This document shows positions 5,325-51,067 of a DNA stretch of 64,000 nucleotides, in pieces. Both the position numbers and the translations under genes were made by a program. Source of the DNA: a virus; the IMG/VR virus record IMGVR_UViG_3300027746_000697, positions 32,001 through 96,000 of that record. The stretch is one strand, 5' to 3'. The notes under the pieces were generated by a model, which ran no database searches, was not told the origin of the DNA, and was given only the letters and a program-made list of their open reading frames with translations. The number at the start of each line of letters is the position of its first letter. The first letter of the stretch is position 1.

Positions 5325-7244
5325 ATGGCTGTGGTACAAATTAGTCGGATTCAGGTTCGACGCGGAAGAATTAATAGTGGCACTGGACTGCCTCAATTGG
5401 CGTCAGGTGAAATGGCATGGGCCATTGATAGTCAAGAACTGTACATTGGAAACGGCGCAGTTAGTGAAGGGGCGCCAGCAGTTGGCAATACCAAGGTTCT
5501 TACTCAAAAAGATCTTGAGACGCAATTCAACATTCTCAACACCATCAAGCACATTTACCATGCTACTGATTCCAGTATAGTCACAGGCCCTACAGCAAAT
5601 AATCCCACCACACGGTTATTACAAGATAAGTTAGATGATTTAGTATCCGCATACGATTTTGGTGTTACAGGCAACGGTGTTGCTGACGACACAGTTGCAC
5701 TACAACGTGCTATCAATCAGTTATTTTTAAACCCCACTACTAAATCTTCAGGCACATCGGTCATTGCCAAACGAACTAGAGTAACATTAGCGTTACAACC
5801 TGGCGTGTACAATATTTCATCCACACTGTATGTTCCTGCATACGCAAGCATAGTTGGTGCTGGCTCAGATAAAACTTTTATATATTACAATCCAGTGTCC
5901 ACAGTTACAGGTGCTACTATCAACGGACAAAATATTTTAACTACCACCGGAGCAACTCTTCGCATGGTTGGAGCACTGATAACAGGCAACGGTATTCCTG
6001 TTGGTGCCAGCATTGTCAGCGTTGTTGCAGGAGTCAGTGTGACCTTGAGTGCAAATGCCACAGTTACACAAACTGCTGTTGCATTTACTGTTACCCTGAC
6101 CAAGTCTGCTGTGGAGTTTGTCAATGACACTTCGACCATTGGCAATCCATCGCTGATAGCAACAACTACCAATACCAACCAACCACGCGGCATACAATTG
6201 GAAGGCATGACTATCCATGCACCAACAGGAAAAAATGGATGCCTAACATTAAACTGTGTTAAAGACAGTAAATTTGTAGATTTAAATTTGCAAGGCGATT
6301 GGGCCGGTGTAGTAAATACCAAAAACATTGGCATTGCATTAAACAGTTTTAGTAGTTTGGTTACTTGTTCTGCTAACTTGTTTAAAGATATTCGATTTGT
6401 AAACTTTACCTACGCAGTATATGCAAAACAAGATATCATTGATAACACTTTTGAAAATTGTTTCTTTGATAACGGTTATCAAAGTTTTGTGTTGGGTGAA
6501 GGAGTCAACCCATCATTGAATATTGTTGGATCGTTGTATGGTCCACGAAATACCAACATTATTAATTGCAGATTTAACAACATTAAAAGACATGCTGTTT
6601 ATTTGGATGTTGGAACAAACAACACCACTAGAAATTGCATATACAAAAACGTAGGCAATGACGGCGGCACTGATAGTTTAAGTGCTGTCTATCCTCAGAT
6701 ATACTTTGCCACGCATGGTAACGCAAGTGTTAGTGATATATCAGATAGACATGGAGAGATGGCAACTTCATTAAATTTAACAGTAAAATATGTGCCTGAG
6801 TATGCTGGGCATGGTTCATATACTCCACAAACTTTTAAACGAATAACTTTGGGTTATAGAACCACTGCTGATTTGGCATTTAGATTGCCGTGTTCAACTG
6901 ATTCGTTTGGTGTTCCTGTAGAAAGTATTTTACATCACATTGATTATTTTTACAAAAGCACAGCACAAAACTTTACTAGACAAGGCACTATAAAAATTGT
7001 AGCAGACATTATCAATGCAAAAATTCAATTGAGCGACGAATACAATTTTGCAGGTACTGATCCATCCGGTAGTAACCAAATGTTGCTAGATTTTACTGCC
7101 AAATTTCTTGATGCCACAGGCGCAGTGTATACTGGTGCGGCAGGGCAAGTTCCATCGTCTATTGGAATTTATTACACCAATCTTGCTTGGGGAAGCCAAA
7201 CTGATCAAGGTTACTTTAACTACTCATATTCAAGTATTTTATAA
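5325..7244 (+). CDS. tail/baseplate-associated protein with pectate-lyase-like beta-helix
   Basis: N-terminal QISRIQVRRG...LPQLASGEMAW; DFGVTGNGVADDTVALQRAI beta-helix cap; TAAATA upstream. Confidence 0.7.
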   Translation: MAVVQISRIQVRRGRINSGTGLPQLASGEMAWAIDSQELYIGNGAVSEGAPAVGNTKVLTQKDLETQFNILNTIKHIYHATDSSIVTGPTANNPTTRLLQDKLDDLVSAYDFGVTGNGVADDTVALQRAINQLFLNPTTKSSGTSVIAKRTRVTLALQPGVYNISSTLYVPAYASIVGAGSDKTFIYYNPVSTVTGATINGQNILTTTGATLRMVGALITGNGIPVGASIVSVVAGVSVTLSANATVTQTAVAFTVTLTKSAVEFVNDTSTIGNPSLIATTTNTNQPRGIQLEGMTIHAPTGKNGCLTLNCVKDSKFVDLNLQGDWAGVVNTKNIGIALNSFSSLVTCSANLFKDIRFVNFTYAVYAKQDIIDNTFENCFFDNGYQSFVLGEGVNPSLNIVGSLYGPRNTNIINCRFNNIKRHAVYLDVGTNNTTRNCIYKNVGNDGGTDSLSAVYPQIYFATHGNASVSDISDRHGEMATSLNLTVKYVPEYAGHGSYTPQTFKRITLGYRTTADLAFRLPCSTDSFGVPVESILHHIDYFYKSTAQNFTRQGTIKIVADIINAKIQLSDEYNFAGTDPSGSNQMLLDFTAKFLDATGAVYTGAAGQVPSSIGIYYTNLAWGSQTDQGYFNYSYSSIL

Positions 7245-30967: not shown

Positions 30968-31033
30968 ATGGCCCAGAAGAAAAGAACACCAATGGAACGT
31001 GCGGCTCGCCGTGCTACCAAAAAGAAACGTTGA
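30968..31033 (+). CDS. 21-aa basic peptide
   Basis: GGAGAG RBS; MAQKKRTPMERAARRATKKKR. Confidence 0.45.
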   Translation: MAQKKRTPMERAARRATKKKR

Positions 31034-31041
31034 TTTAAAAA

Positions 31042-31435
31042 TTGTTGTAATCCCTTCAAAACGAAGGCATGTTGGACGAGGGTTCGATTCCCTCCATCTC
31101 CACCAAAAAGGTTTTTAATGGATCAGTGGGACGAGTACTTTCCTCCTTTGAATTTATGGAACTATAGCCTACATTGGCAATGGTTCAATGATCCAATAGA
31201 AGAAGAAAATCTTTCTGATGGGGATGACCAGGTTTCGACAGCGTGAGATAGTAGAGACGGCAACACGATAGGCGATGGACGTAATCCAAGCAAAAACCGT
31301 AAATGCAAACGCAAATACATTTGAGTATTTCAAAGTTCCAGCTTCAGTAGCTTTTTCAGCTAATGATGCAGACTTTGCAATGGTAGCCTAAGAAACTACA
31401 ACTCCGGGGCTGGTTAGCCTTGTAAACCAATAACC
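31042..31435 (+). ncRNA. ssrA: tmRNA, circularly permuted two-piece form
   Basis: T-arm and 3' acceptor strand GAGGG-TTCGATT-CCCTC-CATCTCC-A-CCA (ends 31105) precede 5' strand GGGGATG (31220) with G3:U70; tag frame 31305-31391 ANANTFEYFKVPASVAFSANDADFAMVA*. Confidence 0.88.
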
Positions 31436-31464
31436 AAAAAAGGCACTTTCGAGTGCCTTTTTTC
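31436..31464 (+). terminator. intrinsic terminator after tmRNA
   Basis: AAAAAAGGCACT-TTCG-AGTGCCTTTTTT. Confidence 0.85.
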
Positions 31465-33470: not shown

Positions 33471-33556
33471 GGAGTAGAAGCATCAATGGTGATGCAGTGG
33501 ACTGTAAATCCGCCGTCGTAATGGCACGCCTGGTTCGATCCCAGGATACTCCACCA
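33471..33556 (+). tRNA. tRNA-Tyr(GTA)
   Basis: Cloverleaf, GTGGA-CTGTAAA-TCCGC, long variable arm, CCA. Confidence 0.9.
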
Positions 33557-34693: not shown

Positions 34694-34755
34694 TAGGATA
34701 GCAACAGCAAATTTAAAAACTCTTTTATTGAAAAAAAGCCAAAAATGCTATCCTG
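34694..34755 (+). ncRNA. CAGCA-module RNA copy 1
   Basis: TAGGATAGCA-ACAGCAA...AAAAA-TGCTATCCTG closing stem. Confidence 0.65.
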
Positions 34756-34763
34756 TTTTATAC

Positions 34764-35006: not shown

Positions 35007-35063
35007 TAGGATGCGAACAGCAAATTCAAAAATTCAACTTTTAATTGAAAAATAAGCATCCTG
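35007..35063 (+). ncRNA. CAGCA-module RNA copy 2 (Lys-UUU anticodon-arm mimic)
   Basis: TAGGATGC-GAACAGCAA...TTCAA-CTTTTAA-TTGAA...GCATCCTG. Confidence 0.65.
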
Positions 35064-35082
35064 TTTTATAAAAGGAAATCTA

Positions 35083-36652: not shown

Positions 36653-36715
36653 TAGGATAGCAACAGCAAACATTAAAAATCTTTTCTTGAAAAAAAGCCA
36701 AAAAATGCTATCCTG
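36653..36715 (+). ncRNA. CAGCA-module RNA copy 3 (Ser-UGA anticodon-loop mimic)
   Basis: Near-identical to copy 1; CTTTT-CTTGAAA-AAAAG. Confidence 0.65.
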
Positions 36716-36724
36716 TTTTATTGT

Positions 36725-36973: not shown

Positions 36974-37065
36974 GCCAGCGAGACTTGACAGTCAGAGAGG
37001 TTTTATAAACCTTTTAGCGCCAGATTAGCGTTCTTGAGAGGGTTTGATTCCCTCCGCTGGTACCA
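36974..37065 (+). tRNA. atypical tRNA with TAT anticodon (Ile-UAU), long variable arm and minimal D-arm
   Basis: GCCAGCG/CGCTGGT-ACCA; GAGGT-TTTATAA-ACCTT; variable arm AGCGC..GCGTT; T-arm GAGGG-TTTGATT-CCCTC. Confidence 0.7.
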
Positions 37066-46010: not shown

Positions 46011-46039
46011 TTGACATTACGACAACTTGCCTATATAAT
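46011..46039 (+). promoter_or_regulatory. sigma70-type promoter
   Basis: TTGACA-17 nt-TATAAT. Confidence 0.8.
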
Positions 46040-46408: not shown

Positions 46409-46485
46409 GTGGGTGTGCCGCTGAATGGTTAGGCCCCGGATTGCAAATCCGTATTATGCAGGTTCGAGTCCTGTCACCCACTCCA
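46409..46485 (+). tRNA. tRNA-Cys(GCA)
   Basis: CCGGA-TTGCAAA-TCCGT; U73; CCA. Confidence 0.88.
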
Positions 46486-46488
46486 AAT

Positions 46489-46618
46489 TAGGATACTAAC
46501 AGCATATTTTACATTCCAAACTTTGAGTTGTAGGTTCGAATCCTACCTTCCAATCAAGCCTAAACAGCAGTTGGTTGTAGATCAATGGTAGATCAAAAGT
46601 CGTAAAAAATGTATCCTG
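46489..46618 (+). ncRNA. CAGCA-module RNA copy 4: YrlA/Y-RNA-like circularly permuted tRNA mimic
   Basis: TAGGATAC..CAGCA / GTATCCTG closing stem enclosing T-arm GTAGG-TTCGAAT-CCTAC, loop-closed acceptor-like stem and D-arm GATC-AATGGTA-GATC. Confidence 0.72.
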
Positions 46619-46695
46619 TTTAACCAAAATATAGTGACAAGAGACAGTAGAGATACTATAATAGTCGTATAGCAAGTAACACTGCTAAGAAGTTT

Positions 46696-46847
46696 TAGGA
46701 TCGGTTCAGCAACATCAATTAAACTGATGGTCGGCTTAATCGGCAGGTACTGGTGGAGGGGCTTGTCCCCATTGAAACTGGTGCTGAGCCGCGTCGACGA
46801 GGTGAGTTAGTTTTCTCACTTGAAACAAAAAGGCAAAAACGATCCTG
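46696..46847 (+). ncRNA. CAGCA-module RNA copy 5
   Basis: TAGGATCG-GTTCAGCAA...AAAAA-CGATCCTG; long nested hairpin cargo; promoter GTGACA-17-TATAAT at 46634-46662. Confidence 0.65.
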
Positions 46848-46853
46848 TTAGTT

Positions 46854-47085
46854 TTGGATGACTACAGCAATTTAAACTACTAACGTAACTGCTATAGAAG
46901 GTGGTCGAAGGACACAGTAGAAATACTGTTCTAGAAATAGACGCTCAAGAAATAGATAGACTGGCAAAGCACCAGATATGATTCGCATACAGAAAAACAT
47001 GCGATAGGCAACATGAATGTTGCTAGGGTCTGGGTGCCGTAATTGGCCAGACCAGAATACTAAACAAATTGGCACGATCATCCTG
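46854..47085 (+). ncRNA. CAGCA-module RNA copy 6 (multi-hairpin cargo)
   Basis: GGATGA-CTACAGCAA...TCATCCTG; several short hairpins, three AGAAATA motifs. Confidence 0.6.
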
Positions 47086-47094
47086 TTAAAGTTT

Positions 47095-47150
47095 TAGAAT
47101 GTTAACAGCAACTTTAAATTTCACTATAATCGAAAATAAAATACATTCTG
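47095..47150 (+). ncRNA. CAGCA-module RNA copy 7 (5' leader of Ro-like gene)
   Basis: TAGAATGT-TAACAGCAA...ACATTCTG, ending just before AAAGG RBS and ATG 47165. Confidence 0.65.
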
Positions 47151-47164
47151 TAAAGGTAATCAAA

Positions 47165-48574
47165 ATGAACGCATTTGTAAACGCAGTAGCAAACCAAGAA
47201 GCCCGTACTGAAAACGGTATGAAGGCACGTAAGTCAACAGCTTCGGCTTGTGTTGACTTGTTCTACAAGATCGGCGCAAGCCGTGGCAAGGACATCACAG
47301 GCGACTTCACAGCCGCTTATGTGGAAAACTCTGATGTAGCACTACGCATCGCACAATGGGCACGTGATGTCCGTGGTGGTGCAGGTGAACGTCAACTGTT
47401 CCGCGATATTCTAGTTCATCTAGAAAAGCGTGACCCAGACGCCGCTTTGGCTCTTCTAAAGAAGGTTCCAGAAGTTGGTCGTTGGGATGACATCTTTGTC
47501 TTCCAGGGCCCAGTCCTGAAGTCAGCCGCTTATACCATGTTGGGTGATGCCCTACGTGCTAAGAACGGTTTGGCTGCAAAGTGGACTCCTCGTAAGGGGC
47601 AAATTGCCGCTGAAGTTCGTGCCTTCTTTGGCATGACTCCAAAGCAATACCGTAAGTCATTGGTAACAATGACCACAGTTGTTGAAACCCAAATGTGTGC
47701 AGGAGATTGGGACAACATCAACTTCAGTCACGTGCCAAGTGTTGCGTCACGCAACTACAAGAAGGCATTCAACCGTCACACAACTCTGTTCGCAGAGTAT
47801 GTGGCCCGGTTGGTAAGTGGTGATAAGACTGTTAAGGTTAACGCCAACGCAATCTTCCCACATGACGTGCTGAAGGGAATCGCTCACAGCTACACCAAGC
47901 TGGACAAGACAGAAACCGACCATGTGATCGCACAATGGGATGCTCTGCCAAACTATGTAGGTGACGCAAGTATCCTGCCTCTAGTTGACGTAAGTGGTAG
48001 TATGACCTGCGCCGCAGGTAAGAACACACAAGTACGTTGTTTGGACGTTGCAGTTAGCCTTGGTTTGTACTTGGCAGATAAGAACAAGGGAGTGTTCAAG
48101 GACACATTCTTGACTTTCTCAAGCAAGCCACAACTGGTTACTCTAAAGGGTAACATTGTTGACAAGGTAACCCAAATGTCTAAGAGCGACTGGGAAATGA
48201 GCACTAACCTAAATGCGGCTATGAACAAGATTCTAGACGTAGCAGTTAAGGGCGCAGTACCAGCAAGCGATATGCCAGCCATGTTGCTGATCTTGTCAGA
48301 CATGCAGTTCAACCAATGCGCCAAGTTTGACGACAGCGCAATGCAAATGATCGAACGCAAGTTTGCAGATGCAGGTTACACTGTGCCACAGATTGTTTTC
48401 TGGAACCTAAACAGTTCAGACAACGTGCCTGTGGCGTCAGACAAGAGTGGTGCCGCATTGGTAAGTGGATTTAGTCCAAGTATCATGACTAGCTTGCTAG
48501 CCGCTGATATGGATCAATTCACTCCAGAAGGCATCATGCTTAAGACTGTAATGAGTGATCGTTACGCTCTGTAA
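47165..48574 (+). CDS. Ro60/TROVE-like RNA-binding protein with vWA domain (DUF2828-type)
   Basis: TENG, RDVRGGAGER, GRWDD, AAKWTPR, MIDAS DVSGSM, STN, ILSDMQF, IVFWNL, VSGFSP. Confidence 0.82.
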   Translation: MNAFVNAVANQEARTENGMKARKSTASACVDLFYKIGASRGKDITGDFTAAYVENSDVALRIAQWARDVRGGAGERQLFRDILVHLEKRDPDAALALLKKVPEVGRWDDIFVFQGPVLKSAAYTMLGDALRAKNGLAAKWTPRKGQIAAEVRAFFGMTPKQYRKSLVTMTTVVETQMCAGDWDNINFSHVPSVASRNYKKAFNRHTTLFAEYVARLVSGDKTVKVNANAIFPHDVLKGIAHSYTKLDKTETDHVIAQWDALPNYVGDASILPLVDVSGSMTCAAGKNTQVRCLDVAVSLGLYLADKNKGVFKDTFLTFSSKPQLVTLKGNIVDKVTQMSKSDWEMSTNLNAAMNKILDVAVKGAVPASDMPAMLLILSDMQFNQCAKFDDSAMQMIERKFADAGYTVPQIVFWNLNSSDNVPVASDKSGAALVSGFSPSIMTSLLAADMDQFTPEGIMLKTVMSDRYAL

Positions 48575-48791: not shown

Positions 48792-48983
48792 ATGGGTTTC
48801 AAAATTTTGGGCAGAACACAAGACATCATGCAAGGCTACGGACCTATCCCAAAAATGGAGGGCCCTTTTTACTTTAACGGACGTATCTTGTATTATGATC
48901 CAAAAGAAGGTAAGTACTGGGATCCCAAGACGGATTTTTATGTTCCGCATGATGAATATTTTCGAATAGTAGGATTGATGTAA
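48792..48983 (+). CDS. hypothetical phage protein
   Basis: AGGAG RBS, promoter TTGACT..TATAAT; EGPF...LYYDPKEGKYWD. Confidence 0.7.
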   Translation: MGFKILGRTQDIMQGYGPIPKMEGPFYFNGRILYYDPKEGKYWDPKTDFYVPHDEYFRIVGLM

Positions 48984-49450
48984 TGCCAAAATGCTATCAA
49001 TTAATTGGAGTTCCTGCCGCTGGTAAAAGTACTTGGGTTAATAGTCAAGAATGGACTGTGGGTATGGAGTATGTAAGTACAGATCATCATGTGGAAGTTT
49101 ATGCCAAGGAGCAAGGTAAGACTTATTCCGAAGTATTCACAGAATACATGCCCACAGCAGTTGAACTAATGGCACAAGAAGTTGTAGAAGCACGAGAAGC
49201 AGGTCGAGATATAATTTGGGATCAAACCAGCACCACTGTTAAAAGTCGTGCTCGTAAGTTTAACATGTTGCCGGACTACTATCATATTGCGGTAGTGTTT
49301 CGAACACCCGAGCATAAAGAACTAGTTCGCAGATTAACTAGTCGTTGGGAGTCTGGAAAAATCGTGCCTGAACATGTTGTTGCTAGCATGATTGCCAGTT
49401 GGGAAGAACCTACTGAAGAAGAAGGCTTCAAAGAAATTTGGAGAGTTTAA
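48983..49450 (+). CDS. P-loop kinase (AAA_33, polynucleotide-kinase-like)
   Basis: GVPAAGKST, STD, IWDQT...R. Confidence 0.82.
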   Translation: MPKCYQLIGVPAAGKSTWVNSQEWTVGMEYVSTDHHVEVYAKEQGKTYSEVFTEYMPTAVELMAQEVVEAREAGRDIIWDQTSTTVKSRARKFNMLPDYYHIAVVFRTPEHKELVRRLTSRWESGKIVPEHVVASMIASWEEPTEEEGFKEIWRV

Positions 49451-49459
49451 GGAAAAATT

Positions 49460-49705
49460 ATGACTATTAGAGAGTATGAAAGTATACAAGGCGATAACTT
49501 AGAAGAATCTGATATGGCTCAACTGTTGTCGACCACCGCAAACGCAGACGCGGTAGCTCGAATAAGAGCACAACTGCCAACAGGTCCTAGTTTAAGTCAT
49601 TGCGATGAATGTGGGGAAGAAATCCCCAAAGCAAGACAACTAGCAGTTAAAGGCTGTAAAATGTGTATTGATTGTCAAATCGTAAGTGAACGTATGAAAC
49701 GTTAA
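49460..49705 (+). CDS. DksA/TraR C4-type zinc finger protein
   Basis: CDECGEEIPKARQLAVKGCKMCIDCQ. Confidence 0.9.
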   Translation: MTIREYESIQGDNLEESDMAQLLSTTANADAVARIRAQLPTGPSLSHCDECGEEIPKARQLAVKGCKMCIDCQIVSERMKR

Positions 49706-49714
49706 GGAGGCAGT

Positions 49715-50227
49715 ATGCCGTGGATTGAAAATATTCCGTTGGAAAATGTAGCAAAAGGACAGCATCACGATTGCGGCGCCAACAGTATGCTGATACAGAT
49801 TTCAGATCATGACATGGCGTTTCCCTCACCTAAACATCAGTTCAAAGAAGTACATCAATTTACTTTTTTGGATATTGAAGAAGATGGTATGACCAATACC
49901 GGTGGAGGAATGATTGATCTAAGTGAGTTTGCTATTACAGATGAACAAGCAGAACAACTTGTCCGTTTGTTGCAACACGCATGGGAAAATCGTATGAATG
50001 TTGTGGTTCACTGTCACGCTGGCATTTGCAGATCGGGTGCGGTTTGTGAGGTTGGAGTCATGATGGGATTCAATGATTGCGAGCGTTTCCGTAGTCCTAA
50101 TCTTTTGGTCAAACACAAAATGATGCGACTATTGGGTTGGACGTATGACAGCGAAGAAAAGCCATATGATGTAAATGGCACTACCAACGAATGGGGGTTT
50201 ATTACCCCAAATAAAGTAGTTGACTAA
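49715..50227 (+). CDS. Cys-dependent (CX5R) phosphatase
   Basis: FLD, VHCHAGICRSGA, PN. Confidence 0.82.
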   Translation: MPWIENIPLENVAKGQHHDCGANSMLIQISDHDMAFPSPKHQFKEVHQFTFLDIEEDGMTNTGGGMIDLSEFAITDEQAEQLVRLLQHAWENRMNVVVHCHAGICRSGAVCEVGVMMGFNDCERFRSPNLLVKHKMMRLLGWTYDSEEKPYDVNGTTNEWGFITPNKVVD

Positions 50228-50275
50228 TTACTGTGTAGATGCTATAATACTACATTAAACAGTGAAAGGCATCAA

Positions 50276-50446
50276 ATGGCTGGCAAAGCAAAATCGGTTT
50301 ACTTGACGGTGACTACCATGCAACACAAATCCGTGTTTCATCGTGTGTTTTTTAATGCTAAAGACTTTAACGAGTATGTTAATTCCGAAGAGTTCAAAGC
50401 AAAATATCCAACAACTGAATTTAAAATTGTAAAAGAAACTTACTAA
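50276..50446 (+). CDS. small hypothetical protein (56 aa)
   Basis: Promoter TTGACT..TATAAT and AAAGG RBS; MAGKAKSVYLTV...VKETY. Confidence 0.65.
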   Translation: MAGKAKSVYLTVTTMQHKSVFHRVFFNAKDFNEYVNSEEFKAKYPTTEFKIVKETY

Positions 50447-50461
50447 CAAAAGGAGCATAAT

Positions 50462-51067
50462 ATGCCAAGTGTATTCTTAGTAAGCGACACGCACTTTGGA
50501 CACATGGGTGTATGCCGCTTCACACGTAACGATGGTGTTACAAAACTTCGCCCATGGGACTCAGCAGAGGAAATGGACGAAGCAATGGTTAAAGCGTGGA
50601 ACGAACGGGTAAAACCCACTGACAAAGTTTACCATTTAGGTGACGTTGTTATCAATCGTAAAGCGTTAAAAATCTTATCCAGGCTTAACGGTGATAAAGT
50701 GTTAATTCGTGGTAACCACGATATCTTTAGGGACGACGAGTATCGCTTGTACTTTAGAGAACTTAGGGCTTATCACGTTATGAATGGCATGATTCTTAGC
50801 CATATTCCGTTACATTCGGATTCCTTGGGTCGTTTTGGAACCAACATTCACGGACATACTCACGCAAATCGTGTGAAACGAGCCCGTGGAGTTGATGCTA
50901 GAACTGGAGCTGTTCTGTACAGCGAAGAGAACGATGTGCGCTACCATTGTGTATGCGTGGAACAAACTCCGGACTTTGCTCCAATTCTGTTTGAAGATGT
51001 CATAAAGAACATCGAAGCAGAAGGTGGATCAATAGGATTCAAGAGTGGCAACGGACCTACTATGTAA
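50462..51067 (+). CDS. calcineurin-like metallophosphoesterase
   Basis: SDTHFGH, HLGD, RGNHD, SHIP, HGHTH. Confidence 0.9.
   Translation: MPSVFLVSDTHFGHMGVCRFTRNDGVTKLRPWDSAEEMDEAMVKAWNERVKPTDKVYHLGDVVINRKALKILSRLNGDKVLIRGNHDIFRDDEYRLYFRELRAYHVMNGMILSHIPLHSDSLGRFGTNIHGHTHANRVKRARGVDARTGAVLYSEENDVRYHCVCVEQTPDFAPILFEDVIKNIEAEGGSIGFKSGNGPTM

Follow-up and report, generated by a model that had tools for sequence, protein, structure and literature searches.

Ro60 is a ring protein that holds the stem of Y RNAs on the outside and takes RNA ends through the hole. Together with the Y RNAs, it forms a conserved device of RNA surveillance and represents a human autoantigen, and bacterial or phage RNA partners are known for proteins of the TROVE type only. 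The closest described system is that of YrlA and Ro60/Rsr (RF02553), for which Chen et al. (2014, PMC4201824) depict RNAs closed end to end by a terminal stem with an unpaired motif on the 5' side, a permuted tRNA-like domain composed of a T arm, a sealed acceptor and a D arm with covariation at 15:48, and several tandem RNAs encoded beside a ring protein with a vWA domain; YrlA presents the tRNA-like domain, and Ro60 contacts the stem of the Y RNA. In this work, we analysed a stretch of 64,000 nucleotides (nt), hereafter the window, corresponding to bases 32001-96000 of the 116,631-base IMG/VR virus record IMGVR_UViG_3300027746_000697, which is about 32% complete. Judging from its close relatives, which reach 345-356 kb, the source is a jumbo phage. 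An element of 130 nt, termed M1 and located at 46490-46619 on the plus strand, is made up of a handle and a circularly permuted tRNA body, and the array to which it belongs shares with YrlA all the features just listed. An earlier note on this DNA had described the element as a YrlA-like tRNA mimic, and M1 is indeed a real, conserved tRNA-mimicking RNA module.

The handle consists of a 7-bp terminal stem followed by the single-stranded motif UAACAGCA, and obeys the formula 5' AG-stem-NUACAGCAA ... stem-CU-GU 3', so that the RNA, with its ends predicted from sequence, starts with AGG and closes with CCU-GU. Between the two strands of the stem, the tRNA body runs in the order 3' anticodon-stem strand, variable loop, T arm, closed acceptor helix, D arm and 5' anticodon-stem strand, which amounts to a tRNA cut open at its anticodon end and set upon a terminal stem, as in YrlA and as the earlier note had it; ACTTT, a 5-nt variable region with the sequence GAGTT, the T arm, TA, the D arm and AAAGT, which it had read as parts of this body, are all present (Table 1). 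The bases that are invariant in tRNAs and in the tRNA-like domain of YrlA are found here too, namely, the T loop UUCGAAU, G53:C61, U8 and, in a D loop read from the sequence as A14, A15, G18, G19 and A21, all but position 15, which forms with position 48 the Levitt pair A15 (46585):U48 (46529), a pair likewise characteristic of YrlA. Two details of that first description have to be revised. The acceptor helix had been written as CAATCAA/TTGGTTG, a register that is broken in the relatives L016, L017 and L208; the true one, CTTCCAA 46547-53 with TTGGTTG 46571-77, is exactly that of a tRNA and is kept by compensatory changes in relatives, the 17-nt loop (46554-46570) that seals it being devoid of a CCA end, as announced. 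The bases TTCCAA, once regarded as what is left of the anticodon loop, simply belong to an asymmetric internal loop (46513-19) showing no sign of such an origin.

Taken alone, M1 is only suggestive, and the weight comes from comparison. The Rfam YrlA model aligns to it from end to end (46499-46622) with 26.9 bits and an E-value of 0.0022 in a 901-nt scan, a marginal score under the gathering threshold of 69; at that threshold, a scan of the window with Rfam returned no YrlA match. Extending the search, YrlA matched 14 of the 20 related loci tested, the modules scoring 25-43 bits, all under the cut-off. As for ordinary tRNAs, ARAGORN made no call on M1 and Rfam tRNA (RF00005) matched its T arm only (14.5 bits); M1 lacks the anticodon loop and the CCA of a cloverleaf written in normal order.

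The comparative evidence was obtained from IMG/VR with an exact pattern (UAACAGCA, 15-45 nt, T-loop sequence), which returned at least 127 matches in at least 126 stretches, a perfect 7-bp closing stem being present in 77 of the 127 among the matches listed. A second pattern retrieved 17 stretches, ten of which are, by reading, M1-type modules with other handles and acceptor sequences. When 83 unique modules were parsed with tRNA geometry, 68 passed the thresholds (T stem at least 4/5, acceptor at least 5/7, D stem at least 3), and these behave as expected of tRNA-like bodies: the acceptor is fully paired in 40 of them, with a mean of 6.31 pairs out of seven in register versus 2.65-3.40 when shifted; positions 8-9 are UA in 56; and 15:48 is G:C or A:U in 56, compared with a mean of 27 and a maximum of 40 in 2000 shuffles. 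The handle is constrained in the same set, GU occupying the two positions 3' of the closing stem in 45 modules, and the first three stem pairs being A:U or U:A (63/68), G:C or A:U (61/68) and G:C (57/68), respectively.

A covariance model, R1, built on 12 seed modules, found 83 matches, drawn from 70 sources, and 74 of these score at least 46 bits. In the alignment of these matches (A3), 88.5% of cells pair, versus 57.7% after shuffling (reached in 0 of 500 shuffles) and 31-44% with slid partners, and the covariation score is 0.654 versus 0.166. Considered helix by helix in the 83 modules, the paired share amounts to 98.2% for the handle, 99.5% for the T arm, 92.0% for the acceptor, 93.4% for the D arm and 87.7% for the anticodon-like stem, with changes on both sides in all seven handle pairs and all five pairs of the anticodon-like stem, and covariation in four of the five T-stem pairs. 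Connector stem 2 is not a family-wide feature (48-59% paired), although it is kept, with an indel, in L016, L017 and L095. RNAalifold, applied to an unfitted MAFFT alignment (A2), still yields the handle together with the T and D arms and a portion of the acceptor; ACAGCA is invariant in this alignment, the motif having been partly demanded when fetching. Closer to M1, paired changes in the T and D stems and in the acceptor set it apart from L016 and L017: its nearest homologue, L016, reads UUUCCGA/UCGGUUA in the acceptor, compensatory at two positions with respect to CUUCCAA/UUGGUUG, and has G15:C48 in place of A15:U48. Covariation thus supports all tRNA helices, the handle stem and the 15:48 pair.

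The cargo itself is variable. Many modules keep a complete anticodon arm, from which the break in the body can be placed at 26/27, and many relatives close the acceptor with loops of 3-5 nt. In five loci (L085, L089, L109, L137 and L197), N-CCA is encoded directly 3' of the 3' acceptor strand. L109, L137, L123, L135 and their relatives carry an intact GUA anticodon arm along with a long variable arm, a tyrosine-like combination, with A-CCA directly 3' of the acceptor and followed by a short linker; modules of the L109/L137 type could, after processing of the RNase P type, yield a two-piece tRNA-like RNA with a CCA end. Two handle and tRNA-like modules (R1 61.3 and 50.1 bits) are also present in L132, an IMG/VR record labelled GVMAG, whose contig was binned as a giant-virus metagenome-assembled genome.

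The protein encoded downstream of the array, 469 residues long, had been called Ro-like, a designation that holds for the fold and fails for the family. Pfam assigns it to DUF7788 (E 1.7e-47) and DUF2828 (PF11443, E 1.9e-27), with no TROVE match at E of 0.01 or below, and PHROG to group 850, 'RNA-binding protein'. At the sequence level, phmmer found no match in the PDB and a search of the ESM Atlas gave DUF2828 clusters only. An AlphaFold (AF2) model, computed with 68 diverse relatives, reached a pLDDT of 92.3 and a pTM of 0.91, and with it the 13 best Foldseek matches in the PDB were all Ro60/TROVE structures (E 3e-8 to 3e-5, 12-18% identity), aligned over the whole length (495-551 columns) with TM-scores, normalised by query length, of 0.37-0.64. 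In a profile search of the PDB, the four best matches were again Ro60/TROVE, at the MIDAS motif (E 0.023-0.058). The protein is therefore predicted to adopt a Ro60-like fold, with a ring of HEAT repeats and a C-terminal vWA/MIDAS domain.

The module and the protein family co-occur. PF11443 was detected in 22 of the 29 records with handle and tRNA modules, in 10 of the 12 that are at least 90% complete, and in none of 14 control genomes; TROVE was found in none of the 29, its positive controls being detected. In five records, the DUF2828 gene touches or overlaps the module locus. For comparison, in a set retrieved with the same fetch patterns in which the closing stem was not recognised, PF11443 was present in 4 of 22, with the gene 0-3.2 kb from the match in three of the four; these three loci are probably modules missed by the script. 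Across 50,697 deposited phage records, 706 (about 1.4%) encode a DUF2828-like protein. L083 and about 20 near-identical loci, all from one large sample, carry UAACAGCAA and a T arm, with no D arm or closing stem recognised by the script; the L083 element lies directly 5' of the DUF2828 gene, ending at contig base 5699, and the gene match starts at 5700.

The association is also seen in cultured phages. Mycobacterium phage UPIE encodes gp53, annotated as 'Ro-like RNA binding protein' and assigned to DUF2828 by Pfam, and just downstream of its gene stand a short, a tRNA-like (R1 57.4 bits) and another short module. Ralstonia phage RSP15 has a module (R1 59.6 bits) beside its DUF2828 gene, as do Synechococcus phage BUCT-ZZ01 and Listeria phage WIL-1; in Serratia phage BF, neither the script nor R1 found a handle module within 3 kb of the gene. 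Caulobacter phage CcrColossus is instructive in another respect. Its gp139 belongs to TROVE (Pfam, E 1.2e-17), and upstream of this ring gene lie tandem tRNA-like RNAs (R1 61.9 and 38.7 bits) whose handle differs, its 5' strand being G-rich and bearing a CUUCG-type motif and its 3' side a C-run. Since the layout is the same and the handle different, the handle type tracks the protein type: on a shared architecture, each of the two kinds of protein has a handle of its own.

In WIL-1, a match to the ROOL RNA (L230:2471-3022, 87 bits for a cut-off of 99.1, E 1.9e-16) is located some 1 kb upstream of the DUF2828 gene, where the annotation consists of numerous tiny open reading frames (ORFs), and a 'tRNA splicing ligase' gene is found 1.3 kb downstream. 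For the Listeria phage CKA15, a study (PMC12282133) reports that three non-coding regions located 5' of an Rsr-like gene are highly transcribed, one of them being 492 nt long, and speculates that these abundant RNAs might be Y RNAs. We considered these transcripts as evidence of expression for handle RNAs and dropped them, because the related WIL-1 has a ROOL-like RNA at this place and the CKA15 region measures 492 nt; the abundant CKA15 RNAs may be ROOL and not handle modules.

M1 is one of several handle modules in the window, listed with its own parts in Table 1. In all of them, and in those of relatives, the handle motif directly follows the 5' strand of the stem. The whole record was scanned for a 7-bp stem strand followed by three bases and CAGCA, with the complementary strand and a G further on; 29 candidates emerged, versus 6.5 in shuffled sequence (maximum 11), and they include six of the seven window modules, M3, with six of seven stem pairs, having come from a separate scan. 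Among relatives of the neighbouring protein, 80 loci were kept of 256 found, 52 of them with at least 800 nt upstream, and handle modules, one or more per locus, are present in 49 of these 52, with covariation in the last two stem pairs. The interiors of M2 and M3 (about 130 and 210 nt) are conserved and have no Rfam match, representing structured cargoes on the same handle, and their region shows the highest contig depth in RNA libraries. The three short hairpins (57-63 nt) of the tRNA array interleave with tRNA genes, a long way from the gene of the Ro-like protein. M4 overlaps a promoter-like site (TTAACA, 17 nt, TATAAT at 47102-47130, 11/12 matches); it may act as a handle RNA, as promoter or leader of the Ro-like gene, or as a site by which the product of this gene regulates itself; the mechanically assigned ORF start at ATG 47099, inside M4, is probably wrong. 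Within M1, a second ACAGCA (46564-46569) sits in the acceptor loop, identical in L016 and differing by one base (A for C) in L017 and L216, which may be a second docking site or due to chance.

Table 1. Parts of M1, other handle modules of the window and the neighbouring protein gene (positions in the window).
Feature	Position	Strand	Remarks
M1, handle stem, 5' strand AGGAUAC (DNA AGGATAC)	46490-46496	+	pairs with 46611-46617
M1, unpaired handle motif UAACAGCA (DNA TAACAGCA)	46497-46504	+	family consensus N-U/A-ACAGCAA
M1, connector stem 2, 5' strand UUUUAC	46507-46512	+	pairs with GUAAAA 46602-46607
M1, asymmetric internal loop AUUCCAA	46513-46519	+	faces C 46601; read from sequence
M1, anticodon-stem-like helix, 3' strand ACUUU	46520-46524	+	pairs with AAAGU 46596-46600
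M1, variable loop GAGUU	46525-46529	+	last base, U46529, is position 48
M1, T arm GUAGG-UUCGAAU-CCUAC	46530-46546	+	Rfam tRNA positions 43-63, 14.5 bits
M1, acceptor-like helix, 3' strand CUUCCAA	46547-46553	+	directly 3' of T arm; 5/7 pairs with 46571-46577, two U.U
M1, 17-nt loop sealing the acceptor helix	46554-46570	+	without CCA; contains second ACAGCA, 46564-46569
M1, acceptor-like helix, 5' strand UUGGUUG	46571-46577	+	pairs with 46547-46553
M1, U8-A9 connector (UA 46578-46579), D arm GAUC-AAUGGUA-GAUC (46580-46594), A26 (46595)	46578-46595	+	sequence and comparison
M1, AAAGU (46596-46600), C 46601, GUAAAA (46602-46607), AAU	46596-46610	+	strands of anticodon-like stem and stem 2
M1, handle stem, 3' strand GUAUCCU (46611-46617), and GU tail	46611-46619	+	pairs with 5' strand
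M2, handle AGGAUCG GUUCAGCAA ... CGAUCCU GUU, 153 nt, non-tRNA cargo	46697-46849	+	kept in most of 52 relatives
M3, handle UGGAUGA CUACAGCAA ... UCAUCCU GUU, 233 nt	46855-47087	+	6/7 pairs here; 7/7 in many relatives
M4, short hairpin AGAAUGU UAACAGCAA ... ACAUUCU GU, 57 nt	47096-47152	+	ends 12 nt 5' of start codon
Short handle module AGGAUAG CAACAGCAA ... CUAUCCU GU	34695-34756	+	inside tRNA array
Short handle module	35008-35064	+	inside tRNA array; R1 match via handle
Short handle module	36654-36716	+	inside tRNA array; R1 match via handle
Ro60-fold protein gene, 469 residues, DUF2828 and DUF7788	47165-48574	+	Pfam, PHROG, predicted structure

The surroundings are rich in tRNAs, ARAGORN finding 31 tRNA genes and a permuted transfer-messenger RNA (tmRNA) in the window, in agreement with Rfam. 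The tmRNA, of the two-piece type, is located at 30980-31463 (Rfam tmRNA_permuted 134.4 bits, beta_tmRNA 120.2 bits); a tRNA at 33471-33553 is recognised by Rfam (33.4 bits) without an ARAGORN call, and a 92-nt tRNA-Ile(UAU) at 36974-37065 is called by ARAGORN and absent from the Rfam list. M1 begins 7 nt 3' of a tRNA-Cys gene (46409-46482), itself preceded by tRNA-Val and by a small ORF resembling the omega subunit of RNA polymerase. On the other side of the array, 3' of the Ro-like gene, a group of genes at 48983-51067 codes for an AAA_33 kinase, a DksA/TraR zinc finger, a dual-specificity-phosphatase-like protein and a metallophosphoesterase. The kinase has a weak PHROG match to polynucleotide kinase, and the group may represent a set for RNA end healing; Pfam models of RtcB and of Rnl-type RNA ligases gave no match in the 116-kb record, which is about 32% complete.

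With regard to transcription, the phage sequence was met in metatranscriptome samples from lake and freshwater (22 runs), and contigs of four RNA libraries, from four studies, cover M2 to M4 and the protein gene. Promoter-like sites of the sigma-70 type are present at 46011-46039 (12/12 matches) and 46634-46662 (11/12). This arrangement suggests two transcripts, M1 sharing one with the omega-like ORF and the two tRNAs, M2 to M4 the other with the protein gene.

On these grounds, we consider, with a probability of about 0.7, that M1 encodes, as a gene or as a processed segment, a small non-coding RNA of about 130 nt designed like a Y RNA, which would dock by its handle on a Ro60-fold ring and expose its tRNA body as effector; the reading of the family as Y-RNA analogues, advanced in the earlier note, is thereby supported. 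We infer in this scheme that M1 is transcribed and processed to about 130 nt, that the protein binds the handle, and that the complex plays a role in tRNA quality control or repair. The two ends of the RNA would pair into the 7-bp stem, flanked by the conserved 5'-AG and CU-GU-3', to form with UAACAGCA the handle, and the interior would fold into a tRNA-like L, with a D/T elbow, an acceptor helix of seven positions sealed by a loop, and an anticodon stem fused to the handle. The handle would be the docking site for the ring protein of the phage (DUF2828/DUF7788, 47165-48574), on which at least six other window modules with the same handle would load other cargoes. By analogy with what has been proposed for YrlA on Ro60/Rsr, the tRNA-like body may be the effector end, attracting factors that recognise tRNAs, bringing tRNA-like substrates or mimicking tRNA, and the ring might act on substrates of the tRNA type. 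The context of the phage would fit loosely, with its kinase weakly matching polynucleotide kinase, two phosphatase or phosphoesterase genes, 31 tRNAs and a tmRNA.

A number of observations weigh against this reading. On the side of the partner, DUF2828 is missing from seven of the 29 module-bearing records, two of which are 97-100% complete; gene and module are 15-140 kb apart in several records; and no RNA binding by any DUF2828 protein was found in the literature. On the side of the RNA, the fetch patterns demanded the T-loop sequence and part of the handle motif, whose conservation is partly by design, and alignment A3 was fitted to R1 and is thus biased toward the structure. M1 itself has a weak acceptor helix (5/7 pairs, two U.U), and its single-sequence fold (minimum free energy -24.3 kcal/mol, z -1.14) is equalled by 26 of 200 shuffles and does not recover the cloverleaf, thermodynamic folding of such an A/U-rich tRNA-like RNA being uninformative either way. 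A full tRNA-like module (R1 of at least 55 bits) is present, besides the window, in seven of the 80 loci and is patchy among close relatives: the M1 slot holds a tRNA-like cargo in L016, L017, L026 and L056 and a hairpin of 52-55 nt in eight other relatives. From this patchiness, the tRNA-like cargo must be dispensable or exchangeable. Lastly, M1 lies upstream of the promoter-like site at 46634-46662 that precedes M2 to M4 and the gene, and none of the RNA-library contigs, which cannot show absence, ends or strand, covers M1, the gap running over 46522-46695 and one X1 contig ending at 46502.

Alternatively, M1 might be a free tRNA decoy, whose body soaks up or misdirects a host tRNA-binding factor or a defence nuclease targeting tRNAs, the handle merely stabilising the ends or marking them for excision from the tRNA operon and no ring partner being involved. 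M1 stands 7 nt from tRNA-Cys, in the tRNA-Val/Cys transcript unit and not in that of the protein gene, many modules are found inside tRNA arrays, and the two nearly complete records do without DUF2828. We nevertheless hold this explanation to be unlikely. The handle sequence AG ... NUACAGCAA ... CU-GU is kept across very different phages, and the stem keeps its pairing only, which designates a platform recognised by a protein and not a mere clamp; the same handle, moreover, carries unrelated cargoes (M2, M3 and the short hairpins), DUF2828 is enriched (22/29 versus 4/22 and 1.4% of phage records), and an RNA lacking the anticodon loop, such as M1, cannot decoy anticodon nucleases. A different account would have M1 as a signal of processing or regulation, either punctuation of the RNase P or RNase Z type or a sensor controlling maturation or expression of the module array, with no RNP subunit acting in trans. 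According to Chen et al. 2014 (PMC4201824), RNase P cleaves the YrlA of M. smegmatis, whose acceptor stem has 7 bp, and CCA is added to it; several members of the present family encode N-CCA after the 3' acceptor strand, and M4, overlapping its promoter-like site, abuts the ribosome-binding region. The loop of M1 has no CCA, the acceptor loops of 3-5 nt in many relatives leave nothing to process, and punctuation would leave both the conserved handle and the link with DUF2828 unexplained, so that we find this account quite improbable.

It is just as hard to credit, and perhaps a shade harder, that M1 is a degenerating remnant, that is, a tRNA gene that was rearranged, or moved into a short handle hairpin, and that is decaying today, silent or devoid of function. 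The two U.U mismatches of the acceptor, the weak thermodynamic signal and the absence of the cargo in most close relatives, with a hairpin of 52-55 nt in the slot, would agree with decay. Decay would not, however, change T stem, D stem, acceptor and 15:48 in a compensatory manner between M1 and L016/L017; furthermore, the design recurs in 74 matches of at least 46 bits, with many unrelated handles, and the window offers no near donor, neither half of M1 resembling its 28 tRNAs beyond the universal D/T elements (best local scores 10-13 over halves of 30-34 nt). Finally, the 3' half of M1 precedes the 5' half, as in a true circularly permuted tRNA gene whose transcript is circularised, or assembled in trans, and processed to a decoding tRNA, and some members of the family possess a complete anticodon arm, some of these also N-CCA (L109/L137, with GUA and a long variable arm). 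For M1, this has next to no chance of being correct: its anticodon stem runs into the connector stem, no 7-nt anticodon loop results when its ends are joined, the acceptor is closed off with no CCA and has two mispaired positions, and it is accepted neither by ARAGORN nor by Rfam tRNA. Permuted tRNA genes of the red alga Cyanidioschyzon merolae, in which the 3' half comes before the 5' half and a linker spans the acceptor ends, mature to complete decoding tRNAs, unlike M1 with neither anticodon loop nor CCA.

If M1 is read as the Y-RNA-like partner of a Ro60-fold ring, its place among known systems can be specified. The unpaired motif GNCGAA(N0-1)G of the 5' strand of YrlA, thought to contact Ro60 (Chen et al. 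2014, PMC4201824), is absent from M1, as the earlier note had suspected in finding the handle foreign to the canonical Ro-binding motif: G.CGAA does not occur in 46490-46620, and the sole CGAA is in the T loop. The neighbour of M1 is a DUF2828/DUF7788 and not a TROVE protein, and its handle is AG-stem-NUACAGCAA ... CU-GU. M1 would thus work like YrlA and is not a YrlA member, since score, motif and TROVE neighbour all fail. YrlA itself is bound by Ro60 in vivo and bears tRNA modifications, and the phage proteins listed in Table S2 of Chen et al. 2014 (PMC4201824) are all of the TROVE type. Likewise, CcrColossus gp139 and phiRo60 of the Thermus phage phiLo, with Yrl1 and Yrl2, associate a phage ring protein with tandem small RNAs just upstream, the phiLo RNAs being defined (PMC12135203) by a CGAA motif unlike the ACAGCAA handle. 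M1-type modules therefore suggest that the Ro/Y-RNA system has a second branch, not described to date.

A search of the literature, which did not extend to bioRxiv and PDF supplements, found neither the ACAGCAA handle nor RNA partners of DUF2828 proteins, what comes nearest being the speculation on Y RNAs in CKA15. A 2016 work of Burroughs and Aravind on RNA repair systems may have regarded DUF2828 as Ro-like already. The present modules provide a candidate class of RNA partners for this sister family, DUF2828/DUF7788, which is encoded in about 1.4% of deposited phage genomes and in many eukaryotes, with a searchable signature, AG-stem-NUACAGCAA ... stem-CU-GU, and modular cargoes, one of which is a tRNA mimic. 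They make testable the nature of DUF2828 ligands, the reason for handle RNAs inside phage tRNA arrays, and tRNA mimicry on a ring protein as a general device in the contest between phage and host over tRNAs; cluster L mycobacteriophages in M. smegmatis and Synechococcus phage BUCT-ZZ01 are tractable systems in this regard.

The closest likeness to the handle itself comes from the Class I RNAs of dictyostelids (RF01414), whose layout, as given by Kjellin et al. (2021, PMC7919456), is that of the phage modules: an (A)AG start, a short stem with pairing kept and sequence free, an unpaired motif ending in ACAGCAA, a variable interior, and a CUGU end whose C pairs with the 5' G. There, Class I RNAs measure about 60 nt, compared with 52-63 nt for the short phage modules, and the 11-nt motif adjoining the 5' strand has near-invariant U3, C6, C9, A10 and A11. 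The phage handles show the same terminal stem, with pairing kept and sequence free, and the same conserved ends. By eye, the family consensus UAACAGCAA agrees at eight of nine positions with the last nine of the Rfam Class I consensus, the two preceding positions falling in the phage stem and not being comparable; the motif of M1 itself ends in GCAU, unlike the ...GCAA of the family. Besides tRNA and YrlA, RF01414 is the sole Rfam family matching short modules in three phage lineages, with 18.3 bits for M4, 25.5 for its counterpart in L041, 23.6 in BUCT-ZZ01 and 23.1 in WIL-1, scores that are under the cut-off of 41.5 and correspond to E-values of 0.7-3.4 per scan. Class I RNAs differ from M1 in their length (42-65 versus 130 nt), their DUSE promoter and their dictyostelid genomes, M1 having a tRNA-like cargo, sigma-70-type promoters in its surroundings and bacterial hosts.

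Direct binding of a Class I RNA has been demonstrated for the RRM protein CIBP/Rnp1A alone (Kjellin et al. 2021, PMC7919456); the uncharacterised DDB_G0281243 is one of the four proteins recovered in a Class I pull-down. Eukaryotic DUF2828 proteins occur in plants, fungi, diatoms and dinoflagellates (31 proteins per protein search), with no amoebozoan among these 31, the searches not having been built to find one and hence giving no evidence of absence. It is tempting, although doubtful at this stage, to propose that phage ACAGCAA-handle RNAs and Dictyostelium Class I RNAs form one ancient family spanning domains of life, whose common platform Ro60-fold DUF2828/vWA proteins would recognise. 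In that case, a second Ro-like system would exist, with Class I RNAs as its Y RNAs and DDB_G0281243 or another dictyostelid protein as the ring, and in some phages the platform might deliver processed two-piece tRNA-like molecules with CCA. The comparison makes testable, in any case, the purpose of the abundant Class I RNAs of Dictyostelium, which have been without explanation for 20 years.

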